Part shown: positions 1-36,534 of the stretch, piece by piece
How positions within the stretch are numbered: position 1 is the stretch's first letter
How the letters are laid out: every line of letters starts with the position of its first letter
Source of the DNA: a virus
Direction: 5' to 3' (one strand)
IMG/VR virus record: IMGVR_UViG_3300045988_110343
Location: 1-64,000 of that record
Length of the DNA: 64,000 nt
Translations under genes and position numbers: made by a program
Notes under the pieces: generated by a model
The model's database searches: none
Told to the model about the DNA's origin: nothing
What the model saw: only the letters and a program-made list of their open reading frames with translations

Positions 1-195
1 GTTTGTCATAGTGCTTTGCCATAATGAGATCCTCCTTCAGTGCGGTACCTACATTGTACCATGATTTTTCTTATAAGGAATTCTCATTTTGACTTGTACT
101 ATTTATATTCTAACACCAAACATCAAAATCACCAGAGAAGCAACCTTTGTAGATTATTAAAGCAATTATGGCGATTATAAGTATCAATATCACCA

Positions 196-729
196 TTATT
201 CATCCACCTCACAATCAACATCAAATAGATATTTCATGATACGTTTTGTACCGATTTTGTTGGCAGCATCCTCTGCAATTTCTGGAGAAGTAAAATAAAT
301 GCCATTGATTGTTTGTGATGCATATAAATATGCCGTTGTTAAATCTCTATCTACAATGTCATACCTAATACAACAATGCTCATTTTCACCATCCCAAATT
401 AGTTTTTCCGAATTATTGTGTTCGTCAGCATATCTCTGCAACTCAACATTAACCTTCTGTTTTTCAATAGCAAACTCTGTATCCTTTTCAGTCTTAAATA
501 CATTACCTAAAGCTAATCTTCTCAAATCTGATGCTCTACCTTGCCATTTTGCAATACCGATCTGTCCATCATTAGTGATGTAATAATACTCATCTCCGTT
601 CTTTAACCCACATGGATTTGTTTCTTCTTTCTGTTCTGATTTCTCGCAGAACTGCTCAAATAATGATTTAAATAAATTCTGCTGTACTTCAGATAATTTT
701 GAAATATCAATTGTCTTTGCTATACCCAT
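196..729 (-). CDS. hypothetical protein (paralog of 746..1258)
   Basis: 177-aa ORF. Shares KTIDIS..LGNVFKT..RYA.EHN blocks with the adjacent 170-aa ORF, so this is a tandem duplication. Confidence 0.6.
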   Translation of the reverse strand: MGIAKTIDISKLSEVQQNLFKSLFEQFCEKSEQKEETNPCGLKNGDEYYYITNDGQIGIAKWQGRASDLRRLALGNVFKTEKDTEFAIEKQKVNVELQRYADEHNNSEKLIWDGENEHCCIRYDIVDRDLTTAYLYASQTINGIYFTSPEIAEDAANKIGTKRIMKYLFDVDCEVDE

Positions 730-745
730 TTTCTTTCACCTCACT

Positions 746-1258
746 TTATGCTCCAAAGATGTATTTAATGATTCTGTCTCTTCCGATTGCTTCAATTGCA
801 TCAACTAAAACATCTTTTGATGTAAACATAACTGTACCCTGTATTTTTGTTGTAGCCAATGTATCGCAAAGAAGTCTTTTTCCGTCTTCTTCACATCGAA
901 TACAATAACAACGATTGGCAAATTCTGTGCCGTTGTGTTCCTTTGCATACCGCTCAAGTTCAACTTCTACTTTTCTTTTCTTTCTTGCAAATACTGCTTC
1001 TTCTTGTGTTTTAAATACGTTGCCTAATACCCATCTACCGTTATCGACAATGCTATTAAACCATATTGCGCTATAAATAGATCCGCTACCATCAATGTAA
1101 TGATATCTTTCACCGTATTTTGGTTTCCAAACTTTAGACCCTGAATTAGTTTTTTCTTTTGGTTTCGCTCTTTCACAACATTTATCAAATAATGCTTTTA
1201 TTAGATCCTGTTCTGCCTCTGGCAATACTGAAATGTCAATTGTTTTTTCTGTACTCAT
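746..1258 (-). CDS. hypothetical protein (paralog of 196..729)
   Basis: 170-aa ORF with conserved blocks shared with the 196..729 product. Confidence 0.6.
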   Translation of the reverse strand: MSTEKTIDISVLPEAEQDLIKALFDKCCERAKPKEKTNSGSKVWKPKYGERYHYIDGSGSIYSAIWFNSIVDNGRWVLGNVFKTQEEAVFARKKRKVEVELERYAKEHNGTEFANRCYCIRCEEDGKRLLCDTLATTKIQGTVMFTSKDVLVDAIEAIGRDRIIKYIFGA

Positions 1259-1654
1259 TTATTTTCCCTCGCTTTCAAACTCTTCGATTTCTTTCCATGC
1301 CAGAACACTTTTGTCACTATAATAGCTTGCCCTTTTAGCTGTCGCATTTCTCCATCCATAAGAATCATGCCATGTTCTGTTTACGCAACCGCCTTTTACG
1401 GTTACTAAAACATCTTTGCTATCTTCTGGCAGATCATCAGGATTTTTTCTTAAATCATGCCATCTATACTTTTCTTTATATTCTTTTAGCTCTTTGAGTT
1501 CTACCAGACACTTTGCAAGCTGCTCATGATTTAAGGCGCAGCCAATAAGCCTGTCAAGTTCTTCATCGTCTGGATTCGCATGACACAACATGGCTTCTGT
1601 GTATTTCTTTGTTGCCATATCATTTGCGCATTTAATAGTTTCTTCTAAATTCAT
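1259..1654 (-). CDS. hypothetical phage protein (C-terminus loosely DUF551-like)
   Basis: 131-aa ORF packed 4 nt after the upstream gene. W/H-rich C-terminal block VLVTVKGG..W..SYGW. Confidence 0.45.
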   Translation of the reverse strand: MNLEETIKCANDMATKKYTEAMLCHANPDDEELDRLIGCALNHEQLAKCLVELKELKEYKEKYRWHDLRKNPDDLPEDSKDVLVTVKGGCVNRTWHDSYGWRNATAKRASYYSDKSVLAWKEIEEFESEGK

Positions 1655-1673
1655 TTGTTTCTCTCCTCTCTAA

Positions 1674-2117
1674 TCATCCACCAATATTCGGACAAATACA
1701 TTCCCATTTGTAATCGTCAAAATTAATCTCTTCGTCTTTTAAAATTTCACCATTTATAATTTCGACATTTCGATTGAACTGCATTCCTTTTTCAAATCCA
1801 TATATCTTCATATCCACTAAATACTTTTTAGATGTTTTTAACAGTTCTTCTGAATCAATATCATGTGCAAACTTTGAGTCAAGCGCTACAGTGACAATAT
1901 CTTCATCTTGATAGTCAGAGAAAAATTCATCAACTCCCAAAACAAAACCTCTATAAGTATTTTCAATCCAGTATGTTTCATCAGAAGTAATATCTCCAAA
2001 CTTATTTAAAGATAATGAATGCCCAGCACCAACAGGTTTTAATCCTTTTAACATAAATTCAATCACATTTTTCTTTTTTCCTCGGACTTTTAAAGTCCCT
2101 CGACACCAATTTGGCAT
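1674..2117 (-). CDS. hypothetical protein
   Basis: 147-aa ORF with N-terminal MPNWCRG motif; no family assigned. Confidence 0.5.
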   Translation of the reverse strand: MPNWCRGTLKVRGKKKNVIEFMLKGLKPVGAGHSLSLNKFGDITSDETYWIENTYRGFVLGVDEFFSDYQDEDIVTVALDSKFAHDIDSEELLKTSKKYLVDMKIYGFEKGMQFNRNVEIINGEILKDEEINFDDYKWECICPNIGG

Positions 2118-2131
2118 TTGCCTTCTCCTCT

Positions 2132-2416
2132 CTAATCAATTTCTGCGATACTTTCTACGAAGCAGTTGTAGTAAATATATCTCTTACCTTTGTAATCAAA
2201 CTTGACATATCCACCGTCATTTGTATCAATATCAATTTTTCCTTTATATTCAGCAATCTTCTTACCGTCTGCCGTGTATACTGTAATGACTCTATTCATA
2301 CCGCCATTCCAATCGCTTTTCATATCAACGATTTCTCTTTTGAATCCTGCGCATCCTGTCATTGATCCTAAGCAAATCGTTACTCCTAAAACCGTTGCCA
2401 AAATTTTCTTTCTCAT
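2132..2416 (-). CDS. putative lipoprotein
   Basis: 94 aa. N-terminal signal peptide with lipobox LGSMTGC. Confidence 0.6.
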   Translation of the reverse strand: MRKKILATVLGVTICLGSMTGCAGFKREIVDMKSDWNGGMNRVITVYTADGKKIAEYKGKIDIDTNDGGYVKFDYKGKRYIYYNCFVESIAEID

Positions 2417-2824
2417 TTATTTTTCTCCTTCTTCTTTATAGTAATATCCATACAAGCAGCAATCTCCAGAATCCCATGTGTCGTAATAACAACCGTCTGA
2501 AATTGCAACTACATGATTCGCAACATTTACCAAGTAATTGCCTTGTTTATGATCTTTTGCAAAACTTTCAACTGTTGGTCGTTTAGATCCTTTTCGGTTG
2601 CTAATACCTTGATAAGCAAACCCATTATCGAATAAATATTCTTCGTAACATTTTCGCTCTGATGGCATACACTGCATATCCCTTGCGTATAGTAACAAAT
2701 CATCAAATGTTGTTAACCATTCTTTATCAAGCACTTTTGTTAATGCTCTGATCACGCAATCTGAATGATTGTCTTTTGTATCTTTATCGTTTGGTTGATA
2801 ATATCTGTAAATTTTATTTGACAT
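2417..2824 (-). CDS. hypothetical protein (possible Cys/His hydrolase fold)
   Basis: 135 aa. Conserved-looking DCVIRAL Cys and NHVVAI His; assignment is speculative. Confidence 0.4.
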   Translation of the reverse strand: MSNKIYRYYQPNDKDTKDNHSDCVIRALTKVLDKEWLTTFDDLLLYARDMQCMPSERKCYEEYLFDNGFAYQGISNRKGSKRPTVESFAKDHKQGNYLVNVANHVVAISDGCYYDTWDSGDCCLYGYYYKEEGEK

Positions 2825-2990
2825 TTTCTCACTCCTTCATATTTCATTTTCTTGAAGTTTACCTTTCATTTGTTGAATATAATATACCACTTCTTGCACA
2901 TAGTGTCAATACAAAATCTTCAACTTCTTGAATATTTTATTTTACATCCTGTATATAATATGTTACAATATAGATGTGGAGGTATATCAT

Positions 2991-3194
2991 ATGATAAGTT
3001 ATAAACCGCTTTTCGTAACTTTAGCGAAAAAGGGTATGACAAAATCTGATTTACGAACCGCTTTAAATATGGGGTCTGGTACAATTGCCAAGATGGCAAA
3101 GAATCAGTATATCAGTCTCGAAAACATTGACAAAATTTGCTTATATCTTGATTGCAAAGTTGAAGATGTTATCGAGGTCATACCAAACGATTAA
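2991..3194 (+). CDS. XRE-family helix-turn-helix transcriptional regulator
   Basis: 67 aa from the internal Met of the 2928..3194 ORF. HTH pattern LAKKGMTKSDLRTALNMGSGTIAKMAKNQ. Followed by a hairpin plus T-run. Confidence 0.7.
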   Translation: MISYKPLFVTLAKKGMTKSDLRTALNMGSGTIAKMAKNQYISLENIDKICLYLDCKVEDVIEVIPND

Positions 3195-3199
3195 CCAAA

Positions 3200-3232
3200 A
3201 AGACTTTAACCATTTAGGTTGAGGTCTTTTTT
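3200..3232 (+). terminator. rho-independent terminator after the HTH gene
   Basis: Stem AAGAC...GTCTT with an inner AACC/GGTT pairing, followed by TTTTTT. Confidence 0.45.
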
Positions 3233-3234
3233 AG

Positions 3235-3372
3235 TGGAAACAACAGGAATCGAACCTGTGTCGGCAATTTATATGTGATGAAAATTAAATGTAAATAAAT
3301 AAAAATACTTATATGGAGGTAGAAAAATGAATGTTTATGTATTGCCTGCTCTACCAACTGAGCTATGTTTCC
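3235..3372 (-). tRNA. tRNA gene with a ~67-nt insertion in the anticodon loop (split or intron-containing tRNA, or a disrupted tRNA)
   Basis: On the minus strand: acceptor GGAAACA/TGTTTCC (7 bp); D-arm GCTC-AGTTGGTA-GAGC; anticodon stem GGCAA/TTGCC; T-arm ACAGG-TTCGATT-CCTGT; discriminator A. The anticodon stem halves are separated by 74 nt instead of 7. Confidence 0.6.
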
Positions 3373-3502
3373 ATGACTGGCACTTTATACAACTATATAT
3401 AGTGGTTCAATAATTGGATAATCACTATATATTGTGTTTTATAGAGTCATAAAATGCCAGTTTTATGTTTGTGAAATTAATTTTTGTAGATGAATTTATT
3501 CG

Positions 3503-4237
3503 TTATTTGCGAGCATTTTTCATCTGATCTAATATGACTTTAGCTTCTTGCTGTCGCTCTTCTTGCTCCATATGATAATCCAATGTTTCTGCACTAGATT
3601 CATACGCAATAGCAACGCCTTTGGCTTGTTCGCTAAGTTTCTTTGCTCCTTCTCGAACCTCTTCCAAACCTTCCTGAGCAGCATTTGAACTATTGTATTG
3701 GTCTAAATTTTTCTGCAATTCTGCAATCTGCTGATCTGCTTCCATCTGGAGAACCACAGTATCTTTTTCACCTTTTAACTTAATGAGCTGATCATATGCT
3801 TGGTTTTTAATTTCTTCTTGTTTATCTTTTGTCGCTTGCAACTCTGGGATTTTCTTTTCGTACACTGATTTCTGTGCCTTGAGCGTGGCTAATTTTTGAG
3901 CATAATACATTGCTTTTTTATCATCATTGTTATCAATATACTGGTTGATCATTGCCTCGGTTTTAGAAATTTCTTCTTTTGTTTCTTTGAGGTCATCTTC
4001 CATTGTTGCCAATCGACCAGCTACCATTGTGTATGTACCCATTGTTTTCTGGTAGAAATCCTGCTTATCTTTAATTGCAGTATTATATCTGGCTCTTGCT
4101 CCCTCTGGAGTCATTGCATTTTCTTTGATTTTTTCTGCAACTGTTCCAGATGCCACATTTTTAATCTGCTTTCCATTTTTAGTAAATTGTAAATATGCGA
4201 TAATCGCTACAATTACACAAATAATAATAATTGTCAT
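3503..4237 (-). CDS. membrane-anchored coiled-coil protein (PspA/IM30-like?)
   Basis: 244 aa. N-terminal TM helix, then a long K/E/Q-rich coiled coil. Immediately downstream of the flotillin gene. Confidence 0.4.
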   Translation of the reverse strand: MTIIIICVIVAIIAYLQFTKNGKQIKNVASGTVAEKIKENAMTPEGARARYNTAIKDKQDFYQKTMGTYTMVAGRLATMEDDLKETKEEISKTEAMINQYIDNNDDKKAMYYAQKLATLKAQKSVYEKKIPELQATKDKQEEIKNQAYDQLIKLKGEKDTVVLQMEADQQIAELQKNLDQYNSSNAAQEGLEEVREGAKKLSEQAKGVAIAYESSAETLDYHMEQEERQQEAKVILDQMKNARK

Positions 4238-4251
4238 AATAATTACTCCTA

Positions 4252-5712
4252 TTAGAACTCACGGTAATCTGCTAGCTCTGGTGTTCCAAGATTTTCATTA
4301 TCTGTAGATTCTACTTCTTTATCTTCAGAAACAAAATCTTTTAGCATCTTTGCAAGATCAACACCTGTAGATCCTTTAACACCATCTGATACCTGATTCA
4401 CAACATTCATAATATCTTTTGTTAATTTTGTTGTATTTCCTTCTCCATACATAGTGATACTTCCTACGTTTCCTAATGGCGCAGCTGCATTTTTAACTGC
4501 TTCTGGGAACATCTGGCACATCATTTCTACGATAGAAGCTTTACCCATCTGCTTCATAGCTTCGGCTTTCTTTTCGATCGCTTCTGCTTCAGCAATACCT
4601 TTTGCTTTAATCGCCTCAGCTTCTGCTACACCCTTTGCACGAATACCTTCAGCTTCCTGCTCCATAGCATATTTTGTAGATTCAGCTTCTTTTTCTTTGG
4701 CATATTTGTTAGCTTCAGATTCTTTCTGTTTCTTGTATAAGTCTGCATCTGCTTTCTGCTGTGAAGCATATCTTTCAGCCTCTGCCTGCTTCTTGATCTG
4801 TGCATCTAATGTCTGCTCTGTTACCTCAACGTCTTTGCGTTTCAGTTCAATTTCCTTTTCCTGACACATAATATTAGCATCCGCAGTTACAACTTCAATT
4901 TCTTTACGTGATTTTTCTTCCTGGATCTTGTATGCTGCATCTGCCTCAGCTTTCTTTGCTTTTGAAATCTTTTCAAGTTCAGATTTTTTAATCTCCAGAT
5001 TGTTATTCTTTTCTGCAATCGCTGTTGCTGACTCTACCTTTGCATCATTTGCTTCTTTTTCAGCCATTGCTTTTGCTTTTTCAATATCTCTTTCGCTTTC
5101 AGCTCTGGAAATCGCAGCCTTCTTCTTGATTTTAACAACATTATCTACACCAAGATTTTCAATAACATCATTATCATCCATAAAATTCTGAACATTAAAA
5201 CTAATAATATCTAATCCCATTGCAGCAAGATCTGGCTTCGCATTTTCTGTAACAAGCTGTGCAAATTTCTGACGATCAGAAACCATTTCTTCGAGACTCA
5301 TCTTTCCAACGATCTCTCGCATATTACCTTCAAGGACTTCTCTTGCGACCTGTCCAATATTGCCTACTGGCTTATTTAAGAAGTTTTCTGCTGCAAGTTT
5401 TAATCTTTCTGGATTACTGCTAACCTTTACATTGACTGCTGCATCTACATTGATATTGATATAATCTGCTGTAGGCACAGAGCTTGATGTCTTAACATCA
5501 ATTGGAATTAACTCAAGATTAAGGTGATCTGCTTTTTCAAAGAATGGGATTTTTAACCCTGCCTTACCAATTAATGTCTTAGGTGTCTTTCTAAGTCCAG
5601 AAATAATATAAGCTTTATCTGGACTTGCTTTGACATAACCGCTACCGATAATAGCTCCTACGCCACCTACCGCAATAACCACTGGTACCACTGTTCCAAT
5701 TACTTCAATCAT
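4252..5712 (-). CDS. floT: flotillin (SPFH/band-7 domain, FloT/YuaG-like)
   Basis: 486 aa. N-terminal TM plus SPFH domain. Blocks REVLEGNMREIVGKMSLEEM..AAMGLDIISFNV and C-terminal MFPEAVKNAAAPLGNV match B. subtilis FloT. Central EA-rich coiled-coil repeats. Confidence 0.85.
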   Translation of the reverse strand: MIEVIGTVVPVVIAVGGVGAIIGSGYVKASPDKAYIISGLRKTPKTLIGKAGLKIPFFEKADHLNLELIPIDVKTSSSVPTADYININVDAAVNVKVSSNPERLKLAAENFLNKPVGNIGQVAREVLEGNMREIVGKMSLEEMVSDRQKFAQLVTENAKPDLAAMGLDIISFNVQNFMDDNDVIENLGVDNVVKIKKKAAISRAESERDIEKAKAMAEKEANDAKVESATAIAEKNNNLEIKKSELEKISKAKKAEADAAYKIQEEKSRKEIEVVTADANIMCQEKEIELKRKDVEVTEQTLDAQIKKQAEAERYASQQKADADLYKKQKESEANKYAKEKEAESTKYAMEQEAEGIRAKGVAEAEAIKAKGIAEAEAIEKKAEAMKQMGKASIVEMMCQMFPEAVKNAAAPLGNVGSITMYGEGNTTKLTKDIMNVVNQVSDGVKGSTGVDLAKMLKDFVSEDKEVESTDNENLGTPELADYREF

Positions 5713-5778
5713 AAATATCTCCTTTGTTTATAAAATTTATTTATCACAACACCATATACAGATGTTATAACCTAGTTA

Positions 5779-6111
5779 CTAAATACACCCACCACATGAG
5801 TTAGGGCGAAAATCTTGTTCATTGATTGCTTTGAAGATCTGGTACTGAACATCAATGTCTGTTGTAATTTCATCTAACCAATATTTATTAGACTCAATCC
5901 ACTCATCTTGTTTCAGTCCGTCATAATATGATTCCCATTCTTCAACCCAGTCCTTAAAATACCATCGCTCATATCTTTTATATGTATTCATAGGTTCTGT
6001 GCGTAAGTCTTCTGGAATCTTATCGGTAACATCTTTACCATCAACATAAAGCTTCCATTCTCCAATACAGAGTGCAAAACCACGACCTGTCCATTTTGCT
6101 TTAACTTCCAT
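5779..6111 (-). CDS. hypothetical protein
   Basis: 110-aa ORF, W/Y/E-rich. Confidence 0.5.
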   Translation of the reverse strand: MEVKAKWTGRGFALCIGEWKLYVDGKDVTDKIPEDLRTEPMNTYKRYERWYFKDWVEEWESYYDGLKQDEWIESNKYWLDEITTDIDVQYQIFKAINEQDFRPNSCGGCI

Positions 6112-6131
6112 GTTTAATCATCCTCTTCAAT

Positions 6132-7094
6132 TTAATTTCCTAATGCAATTAATGAATTTCCACATGTAATTCTGTCTGCGTCTTCTTCTTTCGATGGAAC
6201 AAATACAATTACATCCCAACCGTCTTTTACAAGTGGTTGTTCAAATTTTTCATATACGTCAAAATCTGTTACAATCTCATATCCTTCGTCAACTGCTTCA
6301 ACTGTTTCATGGATAGGAGTAATCTTTACAATGCATTTTTCCTTATCGAAATACTTGTTCATCAAATCTACGTCTAAATTACTTTTGGACGTAACAGCAA
6401 AATTCAATGTGTACTTACGCTTCTTTGGCATTGGCAACCAATCAATAATGCCTCCGATCTCTGTTAAAGATAATGAACATCCTCGAAACATTTCATTTCT
6501 TTGTTCTTCATTAAGAGTATTGATAGAGAACTGAAGACCAAAGCCATCTTCTCCACCATATTCGAATCCAGTTTTAACCCATTTATGTAAAAATTCTTTT
6601 AAATTATTATTTGCCTTTGGCATCATTGTAGAAATTACTGGATGATATGTGTTGAAATGTATATCACTGTCTGGATCTGCTAACATATGTGCAATCTGTT
6701 TAGCCGAAGCAATTACATTTTGATTAAATGTAGGCTCTCCCATTCTTGCATAATGTACATTTAATCGTTCTCCATGTCTGATTCCTGATAAAGCAATTCC
6801 AGAAGTGATCTCCATCATTAACTCTGGCAACGATGCGTTTCCTTTAAATCCAAGTTTAGGGCAATCACAGAAATTGCAATGCATCGGACAACCTTTCTGC
6901 GACGAAACAGTCACAACTAATTTTTCTCTAATATCAACTGGTTTATGTTCAACTTTTTCAATTCGTTTATCATACCCAAGAAAATCTGCCTTAATGTTGT
7001 TTTCCTTGCCATAATCACCAACGAATAAGTATTCTAATGTTAAATCTGTATCGGAGATAATTTCTCCTGTATGTGTGTCTGTAATCTGTCTCAT
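6132..7094 (-). CDS. radical SAM enzyme, COG1533/spore-photoproduct-lyase-like
   Basis: 320 aa. CPMHCNFC (CX3CX2C) cluster, MGEPT glycine-rich motif, and an FSIN block resembling SplB. Confidence 0.6.
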   Translation of the reverse strand: MRQITDTHTGEIISDTDLTLEYLFVGDYGKENNIKADFLGYDKRIEKVEHKPVDIREKLVVTVSSQKGCPMHCNFCDCPKLGFKGNASLPELMMEITSGIALSGIRHGERLNVHYARMGEPTFNQNVIASAKQIAHMLADPDSDIHFNTYHPVISTMMPKANNNLKEFLHKWVKTGFEYGGEDGFGLQFSINTLNEEQRNEMFRGCSLSLTEIGGIIDWLPMPKKRKYTLNFAVTSKSNLDVDLMNKYFDKEKCIVKITPIHETVEAVDEGYEIVTDFDVYEKFEQPLVKDGWDVIVFVPSKEEDADRITCGNSLIALGN

Positions 7095-7124
7095 TTTCTC
7101 TCCTTCCTTTAAATTACTGTTTTA

Positions 7125-7592
7125 TTAATCAAATAATCCATACCCAAAGTGCTGTCTCAGTTCATCATTCCAACTATTAATCGATTCGACTTTTGGCTCT
7201 TGGACAAGCTTATATCGAAAATCTTCAGGCATAGACAGTGCGATAAAATTCATAATAAGTTTTGCACAATCTTTCCTTTCTTCAATATAATACACGCCAT
7301 CTTCTTTATAGAAATCAACCTCTTTAAAACACCCAGAATTATTTAAAATTTCAAATGCTGTTTCGCTCATTTCTGATTCTTGATACTCTGTCCAAATCAG
7401 TCTCTCACTTCTATAACCAAGACCTAGACCCGTATAATCTTCATTGTAATTAAAAGCTACTCCTAGCTTTTTACAACTGTCTTTATACGCTTGTCGAATT
7501 TTATGAATATCATAGTTACAATCAAATAAAAAACTTTCTGATATTTTATGCCCATCTTCCGACCAGTCGCCTAATTCTAATTTATAAATCAT
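7125..7592 (-). CDS. hypothetical protein
   Basis: 155-aa ORF. Confidence 0.5.
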   Translation of the reverse strand: MIYKLELGDWSEDGHKISESFLFDCNYDIHKIRQAYKDSCKKLGVAFNYNEDYTGLGLGYRSERLIWTEYQESEMSETAFEILNNSGCFKEVDFYKEDGVYYIEERKDCAKLIMNFIALSMPEDFRYKLVQEPKVESINSWNDELRQHFGYGLFD

Positions 7593-7649
7593 TCCAGTCT
7601 CCTTTCTTTAAGCACCCACCCGTCAAATTTGACGGGAAGGTGTATTATC

Positions 7650-8123
7650 TTAATCTTCTAACGAATCAATCACTGCACGTTTCGCAGCATCAATCTTTTT
7701 AAACTCAATCGCATGAAGAATATCACTTCTGGCAGAATCGGCATATGATAATGCCTGCTCTAATTCAAACTTCTTTTCTCCTAATTGATCTGAGTCATAT
7801 GCTAGAAGTCCTACTATGGCTCTTTCCTCAGTCTCTATATTGTCGATCAATGTATTATCACATTCCCAATCCATAAAGCAATTTCCATTACCTTTACGCA
7901 TTATTTCACTAGATTCCATAGGTTTTCCAACTTTACCTAGCTCAATTTCTCTGGCATGAAATCCGTCTTTCATCCACGTATATTTATGCTTCAAACCTAA
8001 AATGTGCTTTGCTTGCTTAGAGGTAAATTGAGCAGCTTCAGACTTACGATTATCACGAACGTATTTATTTCTTGCATGATCTCTTTTCACATAGAACTCT
8101 CCATTCGTAATTATGTATTTCAT
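7650..8123 (-). CDS. hypothetical protein
   Basis: 157-aa ORF. Confidence 0.5.
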   Translation of the reverse strand: MKYIITNGEFYVKRDHARNKYVRDNRKSEAAQFTSKQAKHILGLKHKYTWMKDGFHAREIELGKVGKPMESSEIMRKGNGNCFMDWECDNTLIDNIETEERAIVGLLAYDSDQLGEKKFELEQALSYADSARSDILHAIEFKKIDAAKRAVIDSLED

Positions 8124-8316
8124 ACATCACTCCTGTATTTAATTGTAGTTTTTTGGAAAAATTTTCATGTTGACGAACATATTTAGAATTGTTATAATGA
8201 TTTTAAGGATAATAATATCCTTATCTCTTAAACAATTCTAAATATCAAATTCGATTTTCTATCGTGCTGCCAACACGGTAGATTCAAAAAATCTTTTTTT
8301 GTTATCTATGATTTGT

Positions 8317-8682
8317 TTAGTTGAAATTTTTAGTTTGTGTGAAAGTAGAAGTTTTACCAAAGACTTCTGCTTTCTTTTTTATTGTCTGTATTTTTATTCC
8401 AACATTGTATCTCTCTTTGTATGTAAATTGCAGGCATTTGATTATGTCAAATATGTCGTCCTGCCTAATATGAGAGAACAAATTCTCATCTTGAATAAAT
8501 TCGATCCAATGATATGAAAGATCTTTATCTTTGCCATAGATCTTCATCTTTCTATCATCTGCTCGAATCTTATATTCACTCAGAAACCACGATGACATTT
8601 CTGATGAGTGTAAATCAAGTACATCAATATGCATTTGATTTGATTGATTCGCTACCAATGTTTTTAATATTTGATTGTCCAT
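8317..8682 (-). CDS. hypothetical protein (AT-rich island)
   Basis: 121-aa ORF in a visibly AT-richer segment. Confidence 0.45.
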   Translation of the reverse strand: MDNQILKTLVANQSNQMHIDVLDLHSSEMSSWFLSEYKIRADDRKMKIYGKDKDLSYHWIEFIQDENLFSHIRQDDIFDIIKCLQFTYKERYNVGIKIQTIKKKAEVFGKTSTFTQTKNFN

Positions 8683-8699
8683 ACATATACCTTCCTTTA

Positions 8700-9725
8700 T
8701 TATGTCATAATTTGATGTACACGATAATTCTTATAGTCCTCATCTTTATATAAATAACCAATAGTTTTACCAATTACAGTTTGACGATCACTAAATTGTT
8801 TCTTTTTTAATCTATATGATATATAATAATTATAATAAAATTCAATTGCAATTTCACTAAATTGACGTGCGATTATAGATCGTGCGATTCCTTCTTTTGA
8901 TTTAATATAATATAAATCTGCAATTGCCTTGATATCCATTTTAGATTTTAAATATTGTATAAAACCAGAATTAATAACATCAATGGTTGTCAATTTCTCA
9001 TAAGATAAAGTGTTACCAGTTAATTCTAATTGAGACTGCACATTATTATATATCCTCTTTTGCTCTGCTTGATATTCTTCTATATTATTACATTTTTTTC
9101 GTGGTATTAATACAAAATCATCATATATATTCGTATCTCCCATTTTCAATTTATATTCATTCAATGTCTCGATAAAATCTTTGGAGACTGGTTTCCCAAA
9201 AATTGTTAAATCATTTTGATTAATATCTGAGAATTTTAGATTTCTTAACTCCTTTCCATTTATCCCGTTATATAAACTCACAATATGAAATCTAGTATTC
9301 AATTTGGTATCGGCTGATGCATTGCACGACATCAGATTCGAAATAAACGCATTTATTTTATCTGGTGTAACATAATTAACATTAACTCTATTTGAAAAAT
9401 ATATATCAACTGCTAATTGCAAGTTTATAAATTTATCATTAACAAATGGATTATATTTAATGTAATTTTGTTCATATGCATAAGTATATAGTTTAACGAG
9501 CTGGTCATATCTTTTTTTAATAGAATTCATACTTTTGGTTTTTTTACCTCTAGTATCTGATAATATAGCCTCTTGGATTGTACCTGGTGCATACGTTAAC
9601 CCAGATTCATTGTCGTCCGCAATATCAGAATCTAACAACCAATTCCATGTTGGGCGACGTGATTCTGATACGTGAGAATCTATATAATTTTGTATCAATT
9701 CTTTATTATTCATAATATTCTCCAT
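8700..9725 (-). CDS. hypothetical protein; candidate partner of the PemK/MazF-like gene
   Basis: 341 aa, N/Y/K-rich with AT-rich codon usage. Begins 3 nt after the MazF-like ORF, suggesting one operon. Confidence 0.5.
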   Translation of the reverse strand: MENIMNNKELIQNYIDSHVSESRRPTWNWLLDSDIADDNESGLTYAPGTIQEAILSDTRGKKTKSMNSIKKRYDQLVKLYTYAYEQNYIKYNPFVNDKFINLQLAVDIYFSNRVNVNYVTPDKINAFISNLMSCNASADTKLNTRFHIVSLYNGINGKELRNLKFSDINQNDLTIFGKPVSKDFIETLNEYKLKMGDTNIYDDFVLIPRKKCNNIEEYQAEQKRIYNNVQSQLELTGNTLSYEKLTTIDVINSGFIQYLKSKMDIKAIADLYYIKSKEGIARSIIARQFSEIAIEFYYNYYISYRLKKKQFSDRQTVIGKTIGYLYKDEDYKNYRVHQIMT

Positions 9726-9727
9726 TT

Positions 9728-10177
9728 CTAGGATGCCATTGCATTCATGTACGATAACATGCCGTTTTGTATTAAAATGCCATGTCCTATTTTTAACATT
9801 AAAGATAGATCAGATATTCTTCCCCAATACTCTAAAAGATTATTCTTTGGAATTGTTCTTCCTTGCTCTAAATACACCTGTGATACAATTTTTAATCCAT
9901 TACTGGTATTTGGATAAATGGTTACATGTGTCGGTATCCAGTTCCTTAATTTTTTTGTAATTGGATACACGTTAATCTCTGTGCTCGTATTATTACAAAT
10001 ATTATTAGAATATACGATGATTGGTCTTTTCCCATGCAAGATATGACTACCTTCAATTTTCGGCAAATCTGCAAAATATATTCCCCAAACTTGAGGATTT
10101 TGATATTTGCCATATACATATTCTTTTCTTTTTCTGTTATCGTTTCCTTTTCTTTCTTTGTTAGTATATCCGTTCAT
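9728..10177 (-). CDS. PemK/MazF-family toxin-like protein
   Basis: Motifs GKRPIIVYSN, TEINVYPITKK and GLKIVSQVYLEQGRTIPK fit the PemK/MazF fold. Start placed at the internal Met, which has a GAGGGA RBS downstream of the predicted promoter; the track ORF starts at 10237. Confidence 0.55.
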   Translation of the reverse strand: MNGYTNKERKGNDNRKRKEYVYGKYQNPQVWGIYFADLPKIEGSHILHGKRPIIVYSNNICNNTSTEINVYPITKKLRNWIPTHVTIYPNTSNGLKIVSQVYLEQGRTIPKNNLLEYWGRISDLSLMLKIGHGILIQNGMLSYMNAMAS

Positions 10178-10224
10178 TTTTACGTCCCTCAACTTTCCCC
10201 AGTTGCATTTTTTGTTTTCATGAA

Positions 10225-10266
10225 TTAAATATACCATACTTTTTGCACCCTGTCAATAGGTGCAAG
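10225..10266 (-). promoter_or_regulatory. sigma70-like promoter with a palindromic operator (TGCACC-N9-GGTGCA)
   Basis: Minus strand reads TTGACA-17-TGgTATATT. The palindrome at 10244..10264 overlaps the -35. A near-identical 27-nt element recurs at 33661..33697. Confidence 0.55.
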
Positions 10267-10337
10267 AAAGAAAGTTAATTTTTATTGTAAACAAAGAATC
10301 TCTACATTTCTTATTATAATGCTACTATAGAACAAAA

Positions 10338-10658
10338 TCAAGATATTTTTCGAACAAATGTTCTCTTTTTGTTCGAACACTTCACTTTTCGTTTGCTTGG
10401 AAGTGGAAAATACTGTCTGACCTGATGTGGTTTGTCTAATCTCCACTTCTTTTCCTCAAAGTCATAGTCGCAAAAATCAAGCACTTCGTCCACACATCCA
10501 TCATTATATTTGTAATCCACGATTACAGGATATGTTTTATATCTCATATAACGTGATGCGTTATCTGGTTTTAGCGGTGGAATATCTGCTGAAATCCACA
10601 TAAGATTCTGGTTTACTTTCTTTTCTTCTTTATTTTGTCTAATTGTATTTATCTTCAT
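10338..10658 (-). CDS. hypothetical protein
   Basis: 106-aa ORF. Confidence 0.45.
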   Translation of the reverse strand: MKINTIRQNKEEKKVNQNLMWISADIPPLKPDNASRYMRYKTYPVIVDYKYNDGCVDEVLDFCDYDFEEKKWRLDKPHQVRQYFPLPSKRKVKCSNKKRTFVRKIS

Positions 10659-10670
10659 ACAAAATTCTCC

Positions 10671-11417
10671 TTATGAAATCCTAATTATCTGTTCGTAAAT
10701 TGCAATCGCATTATCTTCTGGGAAATTCTGGTTCACATGCATATGCCCAAAGAACCACTTTCTATATTCGACAGATTCTTTGATCTCTTGCAAATAATCC
10801 GTCAATATATCTGTTTTATATAGTCCTGCTCCGCCATCCATTTGTCTTAAAGCAGACGTGTACGGACTGTGTGTGATTATATAATCTACTTGTAGTCCAT
10901 TCTTCTTCAGATTCATTACACCTTCTACCATTTCTTCCTCTGAAGGAAGTTCTTCTTTCCACCATGATATATGATTAATGCGAAACATTTTATCGTAATC
11001 TCTATACCACTCATTAATTCTTGGATCGTTTTGCTCTAAAATCCCATCCTGAACATCGTGAGAACTAGCTCCACCAAACGTAAAGAATCTCTTTCCCTGG
11101 ATATCAAATATCTGCCCTCGCATGAGATGAAAAATAGAATCACGAATCTTATGAACCTTTCCGCCATTCCATTCTTCTACAGGATATTCGTACAGCCGAT
11201 CATAATTTTCATGGTTCCCACATACAAACAAAGTAGTAAATGGTTTGTTATCTAACCATTCCAGATTATATCGTTCTTCTTTTGTGTCATGCCACAGTCC
11301 AAAATCTCCGCAGATAATCACATAATCATCTTTGGTTAACTCAACTCCCTCTGGGAAAGAACGACTGTTTAATCGAGTCATCCAATCCCCATGTGTATCT
11401 CCTGTTACAAATATCAT
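10671..11417 (-). CDS. calcineurin-like metallophosphoesterase
   Basis: 248 aa. Motifs GDTHGD, GDFGLW, GNHE and GHMH. Confidence 0.8.
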   Translation of the reverse strand: MIFVTGDTHGDWMTRLNSRSFPEGVELTKDDYVIICGDFGLWHDTKEERYNLEWLDNKPFTTLFVCGNHENYDRLYEYPVEEWNGGKVHKIRDSIFHLMRGQIFDIQGKRFFTFGGASSHDVQDGILEQNDPRINEWYRDYDKMFRINHISWWKEELPSEEEMVEGVMNLKKNGLQVDYIITHSPYTSALRQMDGGAGLYKTDILTDYLQEIKESVEYRKWFFGHMHVNQNFPEDNAIAIYEQIIRIS

Positions 11418-12364
11418 ACAATTACTCCTTCCAATAACTCTTCTAATGCCTGCATATTATCTTCATGTACTCTATCATCTTGATCTGCATCATCTTTGCC
11501 AGTCTTATAAGCAAACTTGATAATCTCCATAACTCTATCATAACTCACATTAACAACATTTTCCTTCAATCCGTTAAAAGCCCCACTGATAATTTCCTTG
11601 TATGTCTGCGCAATATCATCAAACAATACATGAGTTTCTTCCTCTGTGATTGTTGCATACAGAAATGTCATTGCAGGGCTACTATGATTCAATAATCTCA
11701 TAAGTGTATACAATACGTTCTGATCATCTTTATGATCGACAAGTGTCCAATACACAAAGTTCTTTCGTAATGTATGCGTACCAATATTGTCCTCAATTCC
11801 AACTGCTTTAGCACCTTTTTTAACAAAATCCAAAGCATTTGCTTCAGTCATGTGTCCTGATCCAGACTTACATGTTCCAAAAACATAATCATCCATTGGC
11901 ACTTCGCCATCAATCTTGACATCATATTTAGTTCCTGCAACAGCTTCAAAGAAAATATCCACTGCTTCAGTTACCAAATCGTTAAAGTATACAGTTCTGA
12001 ATTTCTTTGTTTTCTTTTCCTGTTTACGAGTCTTATCGTCTAATAAATCGCCCCATTTGAGTCTAACAATATCAGAGATACGATATGCTGTATTGTTTCC
12101 AACTGTAACCAAAAGATTGTTTCTGGCAGCTACATATCGTTTGTACTCTGTGTACGATTTATCAATCTGGTCTCTAAAATATGCATTAAAGGCTGCAAAT
12201 TGTTTTCTGTCCTTGATCGGATACACTAAAGATGATACGCCTTTTTGTTTGTTAGATCGAGTCCATTTAGGACTTCCATCCTTACGTCTTTTAATCTTTG
12301 TTTCAGATTCTTCTGCGTTATTATTGTTTACTGTTTCAATAACTTCAAACTGTGTTGCTGCCAT
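11414..12364 (-). CDS. int: tyrosine-type site-specific recombinase / phage integrase
   Basis: 316 aa. Box motifs AYRISDIVRLKW (Arg), GTHTLRKNF (HxxR) and NHSSPAMTFLYA (catalytic Tyr). Confidence 0.8.
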   Translation of the reverse strand: MAATQFEVIETVNNNNAEESETKIKRRKDGSPKWTRSNKQKGVSSLVYPIKDRKQFAAFNAYFRDQIDKSYTEYKRYVAARNNLLVTVGNNTAYRISDIVRLKWGDLLDDKTRKQEKKTKKFRTVYFNDLVTEAVDIFFEAVAGTKYDVKIDGEVPMDDYVFGTCKSGSGHMTEANALDFVKKGAKAVGIEDNIGTHTLRKNFVYWTLVDHKDDQNVLYTLMRLLNHSSPAMTFLYATITEEETHVLFDDIAQTYKEIISGAFNGLKENVVNVSYDRVMEIIKFAYKTGKDDADQDDRVHEDNMQALEELLEGVIV

Positions 12365-36324: not shown

Positions 36325-36534
36325 ATGATAGTTTTATTTACGATTCTGATTGGTGGTGCCGTACTGTTTTGCGCAGGAATGTGTCGTTCTGCTGCTACCA
36401 GAGAAATGATTACGGAAGATATTTATTGCCAGATCAAAGCAGAAAGTTTACATAAAAACGCTTTCAGGAAACCAAGAACTGAAATGGAACAGATGACAGA
36501 CATGATTTTTAAAGAAAGCGAGGATGATGAGTAG
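36325..36534 (+). CDS. small membrane protein
   Basis: 69 aa with an N-terminal TM helix. Confidence 0.4.
   Translation: MIVLFTILIGGAVLFCAGMCRSAATREMITEDIYCQIKAESLHKNAFRKPRTEMEQMTDMIFKESEDDE

Follow-up and report, generated by a model that had tools for sequence, protein, structure and literature searches.

A flotillin gene beside a gene for a membrane-anchored PspA/Vipp1-like protein in an exchangeable accessory slot of a large gut phage

The window considered here, i.e. the whole analysed stretch of 64,000 nucleotides (nt), comprises positions 1 to 64,000 of the IMG/VR virus record IMGVR_UViG_3300045988_110343. Its elements of interest are two adjacent minus-strand genes that occupy an accessory slot of the phage genome and encode, respectively, a flotillin and a small coiled-coil protein with affinities to PspA and Vipp1 (IM30). 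Both open reading frames (ORFs) were confirmed at their respective positions, given here in the order of transcription with protein lengths in amino acids (aa):

4252..5712, minus strand: ORF of the flotillin, 486 aa, the swapped-in cassette of the slot
4238..4251, minus strand: spacer of 14 nt between the two genes, with an AGGAG ribosome-binding site read directly from the sequence
3503..4237, minus strand: PspA/Vipp1-like protein, 244 aa, phrog_33389 (function unassigned), the constant gene of the slot

Because of the short spacer with its ribosome-binding site, the two genes are likely to be co-transcribed.

The flotillin and the anchored PspA-like protein

The predicted layout of the 486-aa protein comprises an N-terminal anchor (residues ~1-29), an SPFH/Band_7 domain (50-207), an A/E/K-rich coiled coil (~210-400), a Flot region (355-427) and an acidic tail. 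Pfam searches recovered a significant hit to PF01145 (Band_7/SPFH; E=1.2e-23, 84.5 bits against a cut-off of 23.6, residues 50-207) and a marginal pass for PF15975 (Flot; 27.9 bits, cut-off 27). The NCBIfam FloT model NF058507 is matched over positions 54-476 of 477 with E=2.2e-88, and the score of 297.4 bits does not reach the 700-bit equivalog cut-off of this model; judged by these profiles the protein is a member of the flotillin family and, by the NCBI criterion, no FloT orthologue. Its best solved relatives are the human flotillin-1/2 structures determined by cryo-electron microscopy (9bq2 and 9l3g; E=4e-52, residues 29-455). The anchor was called by hydropathy only, with a Kyte-Doolittle 19-residue maximum of 2.48 at residues 4-22 and a flank containing six K/R and one D/E, and the composition of residues 200-400 (39 A, 37 E and 34 K) reflects the coiled coil. 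These matches bear out the initial annotation of the locus, made from the sequence without database searches, which had described a flotillin with an SPFH domain, an EA-rich coiled coil and a flotillin C-terminus and had named PF01145/SPFH as the profile to be searched for; the motifs it had quoted (REVLEGNMREIVG, MGLDIISFNV and AAAPLGNV) are all present in the 486-aa translation.

The 244-aa protein possesses a single N-terminal hydrophobic segment (residues 1-20) followed by a lysine-rich flank. Its AlphaFold2 model is all-helical, with a predicted local distance difference test (pLDDT) score of 78 that exceeds 90 across the hairpin, and consists of a transmembrane (TM) helix at residues 2-18 (Kyte-Doolittle value 2.54), a hairpin formed by helices 44-102 and 106-182, and further helices at 187-207 and 215-243. 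As modelled, this corresponds to an ESCRT-III-type fold with the α1-α2/3 hairpin followed by α4 and α5. In Foldseek searches with this model Vipp1/PspA entries fill most of the top ranks (template-modelling scores 0.5-0.64, probability 1.00, E from 0.016). Sequence profile analysis of the family yielded concordant results: PF04012 (PspA_IM30) is matched by 11 of the 13 first-round relatives at an E limit of 0.1 (best E=7.8e-11) and by 55 of the 92 members of the wider family at a limit of 0.01 (best E=6.6e-13), while the next most frequent Pfam family is matched by only 6 of those 92. A profile of the 92 sequences searched against the PDB has four PspA/Vipp1 chains at its top (8qbw, 8qbv, 8qbr and 6zvr; E=1.5e-6 to 2.1e-6), with profile positions 47-205 aligned to chain residues 28-187, i.e. 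helices α1-α4, whereas tropomyosin-type and generic coiled coils score at least 100-fold worse; an earlier profile of 13 sequences had reached PDB PspA/Vipp1 entries with E=5e-4. Moreover, a conserved 'G-D-E...A' turn at the tip of the hairpin aligns with Vipp1, and structural alignments place the protein at 13-16% identity to canonical PspA/Vipp1.

Thus, on the combined profile and fold matches, the 244-aa protein is identified as a distant but true homologue of PspA/Vipp1 in the ESCRT-III superfamily, which carries the initial annotation of a TM-anchored coiled coil of PspA/IM30-like architecture beyond architecture to homology. An amphipathic N-terminal helix α0 was looked for, and the hydrophobic TM helix at residues 2-18 was found instead. 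Because this helix occupies the position of α0, the protein would be permanently tethered to the membrane, and the bulk of both this protein and the flotillin is predicted to lie on the cytoplasmic face of the host membrane. A natural fusion, P0018 (L016 8001-9080), has a TerD domain in place of the TM anchor and is direct domain-level evidence tying TerD to the PspA-like family. TelA, the last gene of many bacterial ter operons, was considered as an identity for the 244-aa protein and set aside, as no TelA family is present among the Pfam families listed and PF04012 dominates.

Both genes are under strong purifying selection. When the window is compared with the related locus L004, the flotillin has a ratio of nonsynonymous to synonymous substitution rates (dN/dS) of 0.070 and the PspA-like gene one of 0.066, and with values of about 0.07 neither gene is a decaying passenger; more divergent phage-phage comparisons gave 0.11-0.13 with dS near saturation.

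By tblastn, the flotillin has matches in 10 of 50,697 GenBank phage records, and in only five of these does the match extend over 80% or more of the query; there is no matching PHROG family, and relatives occur in at least 150 of 2.9 million IMG/VR contigs. Phage flotillins are therefore rare, as initially annotated, and not unique; a few GenBank phages, such as csAssE-Sib and Vibrio phage KIT04, already carry the annotation 'flotillin family protein'. The closest named relative is the chromosomal flotillin of Longibaculum muris (~69% aa identity). The phage flotillin of L022 is 81% identical and that of L023, which follows NAD-salvage genes, 71%, both without an adjacent PspA-like gene. In L022 (2020-6941) the flotillin, an RNase H-like gene and a P-type Ca-ATPase stand in a row, so that a flotillin and a calcium pump can co-occur and not only replace each other. 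At roughly 50 viral loci with more divergent flotillins (43-64% identity) no PspA-like gene occurs within 6 kb, and at the ten of these whose immediate flanks were read there are ordinary phage genes and nothing NfeD-like. A neighbour-joining tree, which is rough and lacks support values, places the flotillins of the window, L004, L022 and L023 beside proteins of Lachnospiraceae and Erysipelotrichaceae; this fits a scenario in which the gene would have been captured once from a Bacillota host and then shuffled among phages. The PspA-like family, for its part, is small and essentially phage-restricted: it comprises 251 cluster representatives at E<=1e-3 in 1.84 billion proteins, and is found in 147 IMG/VR contigs. 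Among 185,579 species-representative genomes only three have it, each time on a contig of a metagenome-assembled genome with the ATPase-TerD cassette described below.

Genomic context and cassette exchange

The slot is framed by the following features:

2928..3194, plus strand: convergent gene for an HTH_26 (Cro/C1-type) helix-turn-helix regulator, the conserved right-hand boundary of the slot
3197..3231, strand not assigned: hairpin with adjoining A and T runs, located where the operon and the convergent HTH gene meet
3235..3372, minus strand: tRNA gene whose anticodon loop is split by an insert of 67 nt (Rfam tRNA, 46.4 bits, E=6e-9), directly downstream of the PspA-like gene
5713..5778, minus strand: spacer of 66 nt upstream of the flotillin, containing an AAGGAG ribosome-binding site and forming the left edge of the cassette
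5779..6111, minus strand: gene for a 110-aa soluble protein of the Pfam PM0253 family (phrog_20678), a backbone gene kept upstream of the slot with either cassette
6132..7094, minus strand: radical S-adenosylmethionine (SAM) protein, 320 aa, phrog_24834, weakly matching RlmN/Cfr-like proteins; a gap of 20 nt separates its gene from the 110-aa gene downstream

For the 80 best IMG/VR loci with a PspA-like gene, a census was made of the gene or genes that precede it; each class is given with the identity of its PspA-like protein to that of the window:

33/80 loci: flotillin upstream; identity 95-99%
8/80 loci: PM0253, P-type ATPase, vWA-TerF and TerD upstream, in the same backbone; identity 73-74%
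38/80 loci: ATPase/TerD upstream (36 with the ATPase and three TerD, one of those plus NAD synthase, one with TerD only); identity 41-43%
1/80 loci (L048): empty slot, PM0253 followed directly by the PspA-like gene 18 nt away; identity 95%

Hence 46 of the 80 carry a P-type Ca-ATPase/TerD(/TerF) cassette, 33 a flotillin, all in one shallow clade, and one carries neither. The empty arrangement of L048 was separately confirmed, and independent metagenome contigs repeat the cassette pattern upstream of the PspA-like gene. The edges of the exchange are sharp. L004 (flotillin type) and L018 (ATPase/Ter type) are ~90% identical in nt sequence until the first cassette gene, breaking off at its start codon, and homology resumes at the start of the PspA-like gene at 73%; between the window and L018 the same breakpoints delimit matches at 6123-5707 (89%) and 3388-2968 (98%). 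The 66-nt spacer at 5713..5778 is itself ~89% identical to relatives in which the P-type ATPase gene begins at the same point, and the PM0253 gene and the convergent HTH_26 gene are common to both types of locus. None of the TerD, TerF or ATPase proteins of the relatives was found in the 64-kb window by tblastn.

The PspA-like gene is the ancestral and constant element of the slot; by parsimony, the Ter/ATPase arrangement is likewise ancestral, and a flotillin replaced the P-type Ca2+-ATPase/vWA-TerF/TerD cassette precisely in one shallow phage clade. Exchange of a whole module, with the PspA-like allele co-varying with its partner, was considered and set aside, given that the allele nearest to the flotillin-linked one (73%) is linked to TerD and that L048 has an allele of the flotillin type (95%). 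The initial annotation had presented the flotillin and the coiled-coil protein as a dedicated pair. This did not hold up: the PspA-like gene mostly accompanies Ca-ATPase/TerD genes, one variant has neither cassette, and ~50 phage flotillin loci have no PspA-like neighbor.

In several relatives a block of NAD-salvage genes (isochorismatase/nicotinamidase, nicotinate phosphoribosyltransferase (NAPRTase)/NAMPT-like and NAD synthase) lies directly upstream of the slot (L004-L008 5938-9600, L018 1-3497 and L019 85-3748), and a similar block is found in L023 (1626-5226). More distant phage flotillins likewise have NAPRTase and NAD-synthase genes within a range of 6 kb in L134, L143 (NAD synthase only), L163, L172 and L173, which suggests a shared accessory or counter-defence island. 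The radical-SAM version of the region upstream of the slot occurs in 11 of the 80 IMG/VR loci, many relatives holding NAD-salvage genes at that position. Co-capture of the radical-SAM gene with the flotillin from a Longibaculum-type locus was entertained, as a radical-SAM gene follows the flotillin in Longibaculum; however, it stands there on the other side and in a different gene order, and in most relatives of the phage the position is filled by NAD-salvage genes, so that the correspondence was treated as a coincidence.

That the locus is phage-borne is clear from its surroundings. The window contains genes for the terminase large subunit, a portal, a sliding-clamp-like protein, a DnaD-like loader, several anti-repressors (Ant) and 10 tRNAs, and the pair has PHROG-family genes to its left and right; its close relatives sit 47-115 kb inside IMG/VR contigs, which cluster at 140-166 kb, and no housekeeping genes were found within +/-10 kb of the pair in these relatives. 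The carrier is a large gut phage of about 160 kb. With the similarity of the flotillin as the sole guide, the host is probably a Bacillota of the Erysipelotrichaceae or Lachnospiraceae type; megablast of window positions 1-12000 against GenBank phages gave no match, and protein-level searches were needed. The initial annotation had named as the finding that would overturn it a bacterial chromosome flanking a prophage, to which an assembly chimera may be added. Such an origin could draw on the ~70% identity of the flotillin to chromosomal flotillins of Longibaculum and Coprobacillus and on the presence of two tyrosine-recombinase-like genes 3-7 kb away. However, the same arrangement recurs in more than 30 independent IMG/VR contigs, far from their ends, the homology breakpoints between phage variants fall at gene edges, and the flotillin locus of the Longibaculum muris chromosome has different neighbors (PadR, HAAS, an 80-aa ORF, flotillin and radical SAM, without a PspA-like gene). 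Given also the phage-family genes on both sides, the probability of a bacterial locus is negligible.

With regard to the 3' end of the transcription unit, the hairpin at 3197..3231 is an inverted repeat of 15 nt with 87% complementarity (fold of -12 kcal/mol, z=-3.1), and on the basis of this repeat and fold it is probably a bidirectional terminator. A scan for consensus promoters and terminators performed no better than on shuffled sequence, and no promoter was assigned. The interrupted tRNA gene, which is probably on the same transcript as the PspA-like gene, was missed by ARAGORN in its default mode and reported in intron mode as 'tRNA-Tyr(ata)', with an odd anticodon and an ambiguous exact position of the insert; relatives retain the gene with inserts of 67-71 nt, or 153 nt in the case of L019, and at 67 nt the insert falls short of the size of a group I intron.

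An NfeD-family partner gene is usual, if not universal, beside bacterial flotillins; neither neighbor of the phage flotillin (the soluble PM0253-family protein upstream and the PspA-like protein downstream) has a Pfam match to NfeD. Similarly, no PspB, PspC or PspF genes were recognised among the annotated neighbors of the PspA-like gene. PADLOC models gave no match at E<=0.01 for the flotillin, the PspA-like protein or the four upstream genes, and filing the locus as a defence system was dropped on this account. Further from the slot, a MazF/PemK-like gene (9728-10237) and a gene for a metallophosphoesterase (10671-11417) lie between the two tyrosine-recombinase-like genes (8700-9725 and 11414-12364, minus strand), and a similar set of integrase, PemK and MrpR is present in the distant relative L013. 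An array of 10 tRNAs (Ser, Glu, Tyr, Arg, Asn, Leu, Gln, Met, Pro, Thr; 41824-43316, plus strand) lies upstream of the packaging and structural genes, and the largest ORF of the window (36524-39352, plus strand) codes for a 942-aa protein of phrog_8308 (E=2e-239), a family of unassigned function.

Proposed role in membrane homeostasis and alternative functions

The above-described architectural and contextual observations suggest, with a probability of about one half, that the operon is a phage-supplied membrane-homeostasis module, combining a flotillin with an anchored PspA-like protein. Under this proposal the operon would supply two membrane proteins of the cytoplasmic face during infection. 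The flotillin would form SPFH oligomeric scaffolds by which membrane patches might be organised or fluidised, while the anchored PspA-like protein would polymerise on the stressed bilayer, sealing leaks, limiting the leakage of ions and preserving the proton-motive force. Together or in parallel, the two could preserve the integrity and the energised state of the host membrane up to programmed lysis, with the phage itself, abortive-infection effectors of the host and competing phages as possible sources of the insult.

The initial annotation had offered three possible functions for the pair, namely remodelling of membrane microdomains of the host, a block to superinfection and the buffering of envelope stress; the exchange of the flotillin with Ter/Ca-ATPase genes favours a role in envelope or ion stress. 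In Bacillus subtilis the sigma-W envelope-stress regulon includes floT, floA, pspA-ydjGHI and the TerD-family yceC-H operons (PMC3498285), and because all of these belong to one regulon the slot may be seen as alternating between members of a single stress-response repertoire, always beside a PspA-type protein. Further, the SPFH protein YdjI is needed in this bacterium to bring PspA to the membrane (PMC8581546), and in the gut Jug phages the terD, pspA-like and Ca2+-ATPase genes are highly transcribed in vivo (PMC12880540). Direct cooperation between the flotillin and the PspA-like protein is plausible in the light of these parallels, and the proposal does not require it.

Several observations weigh against membrane homeostasis as the function of the operon. 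The sigma-W analogy is drawn from a distant host, Bacillus. The Foldseek E-values (0.016) are weak, as expected for long helical hairpins, and the window protein taken singly scores E=0.036 and 14.1 bits against PF04012, where the gathering threshold is 33.9; the PspA_IM30 search that the initial annotation had called for thus gives matches for most family members at the E limits used, and for this member a score below the gathering threshold. For the pair there is neither a PADLOC match nor a known anti-defence annotation. Finally, the flotillin lacks a PspA-like neighbor in L022, L023 and the ~50 more distant viral loci, the PspA-like gene is mostly without a flotillin in the 80 loci of the census, and the variant L048 is without any cassette; because each gene occurs without the other, cooperation is not required and may not occur.

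It might accordingly be proposed that the two genes are independent and adjacent only by virtue of an accessory-gene hotspot, the flotillin being a host-derived moron with a role of its own, such as scaffolding a phage or host membrane protein. The three states of the slot and the solitary occurrences of each gene are in line with this, as are the standalone distant phage flotillins and the repeated proximity of flotillins to NAD-salvage genes across several lineages, suggestive of a general accessory island. On the other side stand the 14-nt spacer with its probable shared transcript, the retention of the adjacency in 33 of the 34 contigs of the flotillin clade, the experimental precedent for SPFH-PspA cooperation (PMC8581546) and the fit of every slot cassette, be it flotillin, TerD or Ca-ATPase, to one envelope/ion-stress theme (PMC3498285). 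Independence of the two genes is on this evidence somewhat unlikely.

The main rival to membrane homeostasis as a shared function is superinfection exclusion or inter-phage competition, in which a flotillin cage, a PspA-like polymer or a Ter/vWA lattice would alter the membrane such that the DNA injection of a second phage, or bacteriocins, fail. A role of this type was proposed by Iyer et al. for the Ter components TerD, TerF-vWA and TelA of jumbo phages (PMC7824862), and the flotillin is interchangeable with just such a TerF/TerD cassette; furthermore, the operon lies in an early/accessory arm amid anti-repressor, MazF-like and other conflict-type genes. However, neither protein resembles known superinfection-exclusion proteins or PADLOC models, and the receptor or the injection channel is where most of the exclusion proteins known so far act, while the two proteins here are on the cytoplasmic side. 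We consider exclusion an unlikely explanation.

Alternatively, the operon might control the timing of lysis by stabilising the membrane against the holin of the phage itself in an antiholin-like manner, which would prevent premature lysis and enlarge the burst. PspA-type proteins respond to the loss of proton-motive force, and such loss triggers holins. A measurable delay of phage lysis has been reported for DynA, a membrane-stabilising protein of the host (PMC8844932), a precedent which is compatible with membrane homeostasis as well. Yet no lysis genes were recognised among the annotated neighbors within ~8 kb, which are radical SAM, PM0253, HTH and integrase-like genes and small unassigned ORFs, and the operon is located in the minus-strand early/replication arm while the structural/late genes start at ~34 kb on the plus strand; lysis control is an improbable function for it.

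Still another conceivable role is that of an immune decoy, with the PspA-like protein mimicking host PspA and titrating or trapping PspA-tethered defence components, e.g. the cyclase of a type II cyclic-oligonucleotide-based anti-phage signalling system (CBASS) conjugated by Cap2. For B. subtilis, exclusive conjugation of a CBASS cyclase to PspA and its release upon infection have been described (PMC11153139), and NAD-salvage genes, a known counter-defence theme, lie just upstream of the slot in relatives. Against this, identity of 13-16% to canonical PspA makes mimicry of the conjugation site unlikely, and the idea is purely speculative, with nothing that ties the presumed hosts to such a CBASS; its likelihood is very low.

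A bolder version of the membrane-homeostasis proposal would regard the phage-specific, TM-anchored branch of ESCRT-III/PspA as the common output of interchangeable 'sensor/organiser' cassettes (flotillin; Ca2+-ATPase with TerF and TerD; ABC/OmpA-like), together forming a viral membrane-integrity system directed against membrane-depolarising abortive-infection effectors and thus a new class of anti-defence. We rate this generalisation as rather doubtful.

Comparison with known systems

Both proteins are new members of known families. The terD/pspA-like/Ca-ATPase gene set has been reported in Jug phages (Sci Adv 2026; PMC12880540), and a flotillin is mentioned neither there nor in the jumbo-phage Ter paper (PMC7824862). 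In the searchable literature we found no phage operon joining a flotillin to a PspA-type protein, no recognition of a phage-specific TM-anchored PspA subfamily (including phage G gp247, phrog_33389), no report of a slot with the three states flotillin, Ca-ATPase/TerF/TerD and empty, and no dedicated study of a phage-encoded flotillin or of PspA with abortive infection or membrane repair. If the membrane-homeostasis proposal is true, phages would maintain host membranes between entry and lysis by means of a borrowed flotillin and an anchored ESCRT-III-like protein of their own, and membrane homeostasis would join the host functions taken over by phages, alongside the NAD salvage encoded next door in relatives. 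The three allelic states of the slot in otherwise near-identical genomes could also serve as a natural experiment on the roles of bacterial flotillins and Ter proteins, and the TM-anchored PspA-like family is compact and would be tractable for the study of ESCRT-III-type polymerisation without a recruitment step.

The flotillin shares with FloT/FloA (B. subtilis YuaG/YqfA) and flotillin-1/2 the same order of anchor, SPFH/Band 7 domain, A/E-rich coiled coil and Flot region. It differs from bacterial flotillins in being phage-encoded and without an adjacent NfeD-type gene, and from host flotillins in its longer acidic C-terminal tail, which is common to its phage relatives. The PspA-like protein resembles PspA/Vipp1 (IM30) in its predicted α1-α2/3 hairpin, α4 and α5, and is set apart from them by a TM helix in place of α0, by its low identity and by a score below the Pfam gathering threshold.

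Among phage systems, the nearest parallel is offered by the Jug phages of the gut and other huge phages, as the relatives of the window L013, L016-L019 and L056-L104 similarly carry terD beside the pspA-like gene and a Ca2+-ATPase (PMC12880540). Unlike the Jug phages, which infect Bacteroides/Phocaeicola and have genomes of 360-402 kb, the present phage has a flotillin in place of the ATPase, TerF and TerD; the likeness of its PspA-like protein to that of the Jug phages is by description only. Bacillus phage G encodes a protein annotated only as 'gp247' (phrog_33389) that is 25% identical over 91% of the PspA-like query, with the same length and the same N-terminal anchor. Its context is different, in that the gene (locus L001, phage G 168844-179512) has ABC (ATP-binding cassette)-transporter-like genes on one side and two OmpA/MotB-domain genes on the other, and neither a flotillin nor TerD is present. 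In L003 (MT835556), a 38-kb faecal phage contig, the neighbors of the PspA-like gene are likewise an ORF similar to an ABC-transporter permease and a 528-aa OmpA-type-like ORF, both identified by reading, and flotillin and TerD are again absent.

The closest cellular counterpart of the operon is the B. subtilis pspA-ydjGHI operon, in which an SPFH protein and a PspA homologue are similarly encoded together. The gene order is reversed between the two, pspA being the first gene in the bacterial operon. Moreover, YdjI/SamI is a soluble SPFH protein that is recruited by YdjG/H, whereas the phage flotillin is predicted to be anchored and no YdjG/H homologues are present in the phage operon; the phage PspA-like protein, having an anchor of its own, may not need a recruiter.

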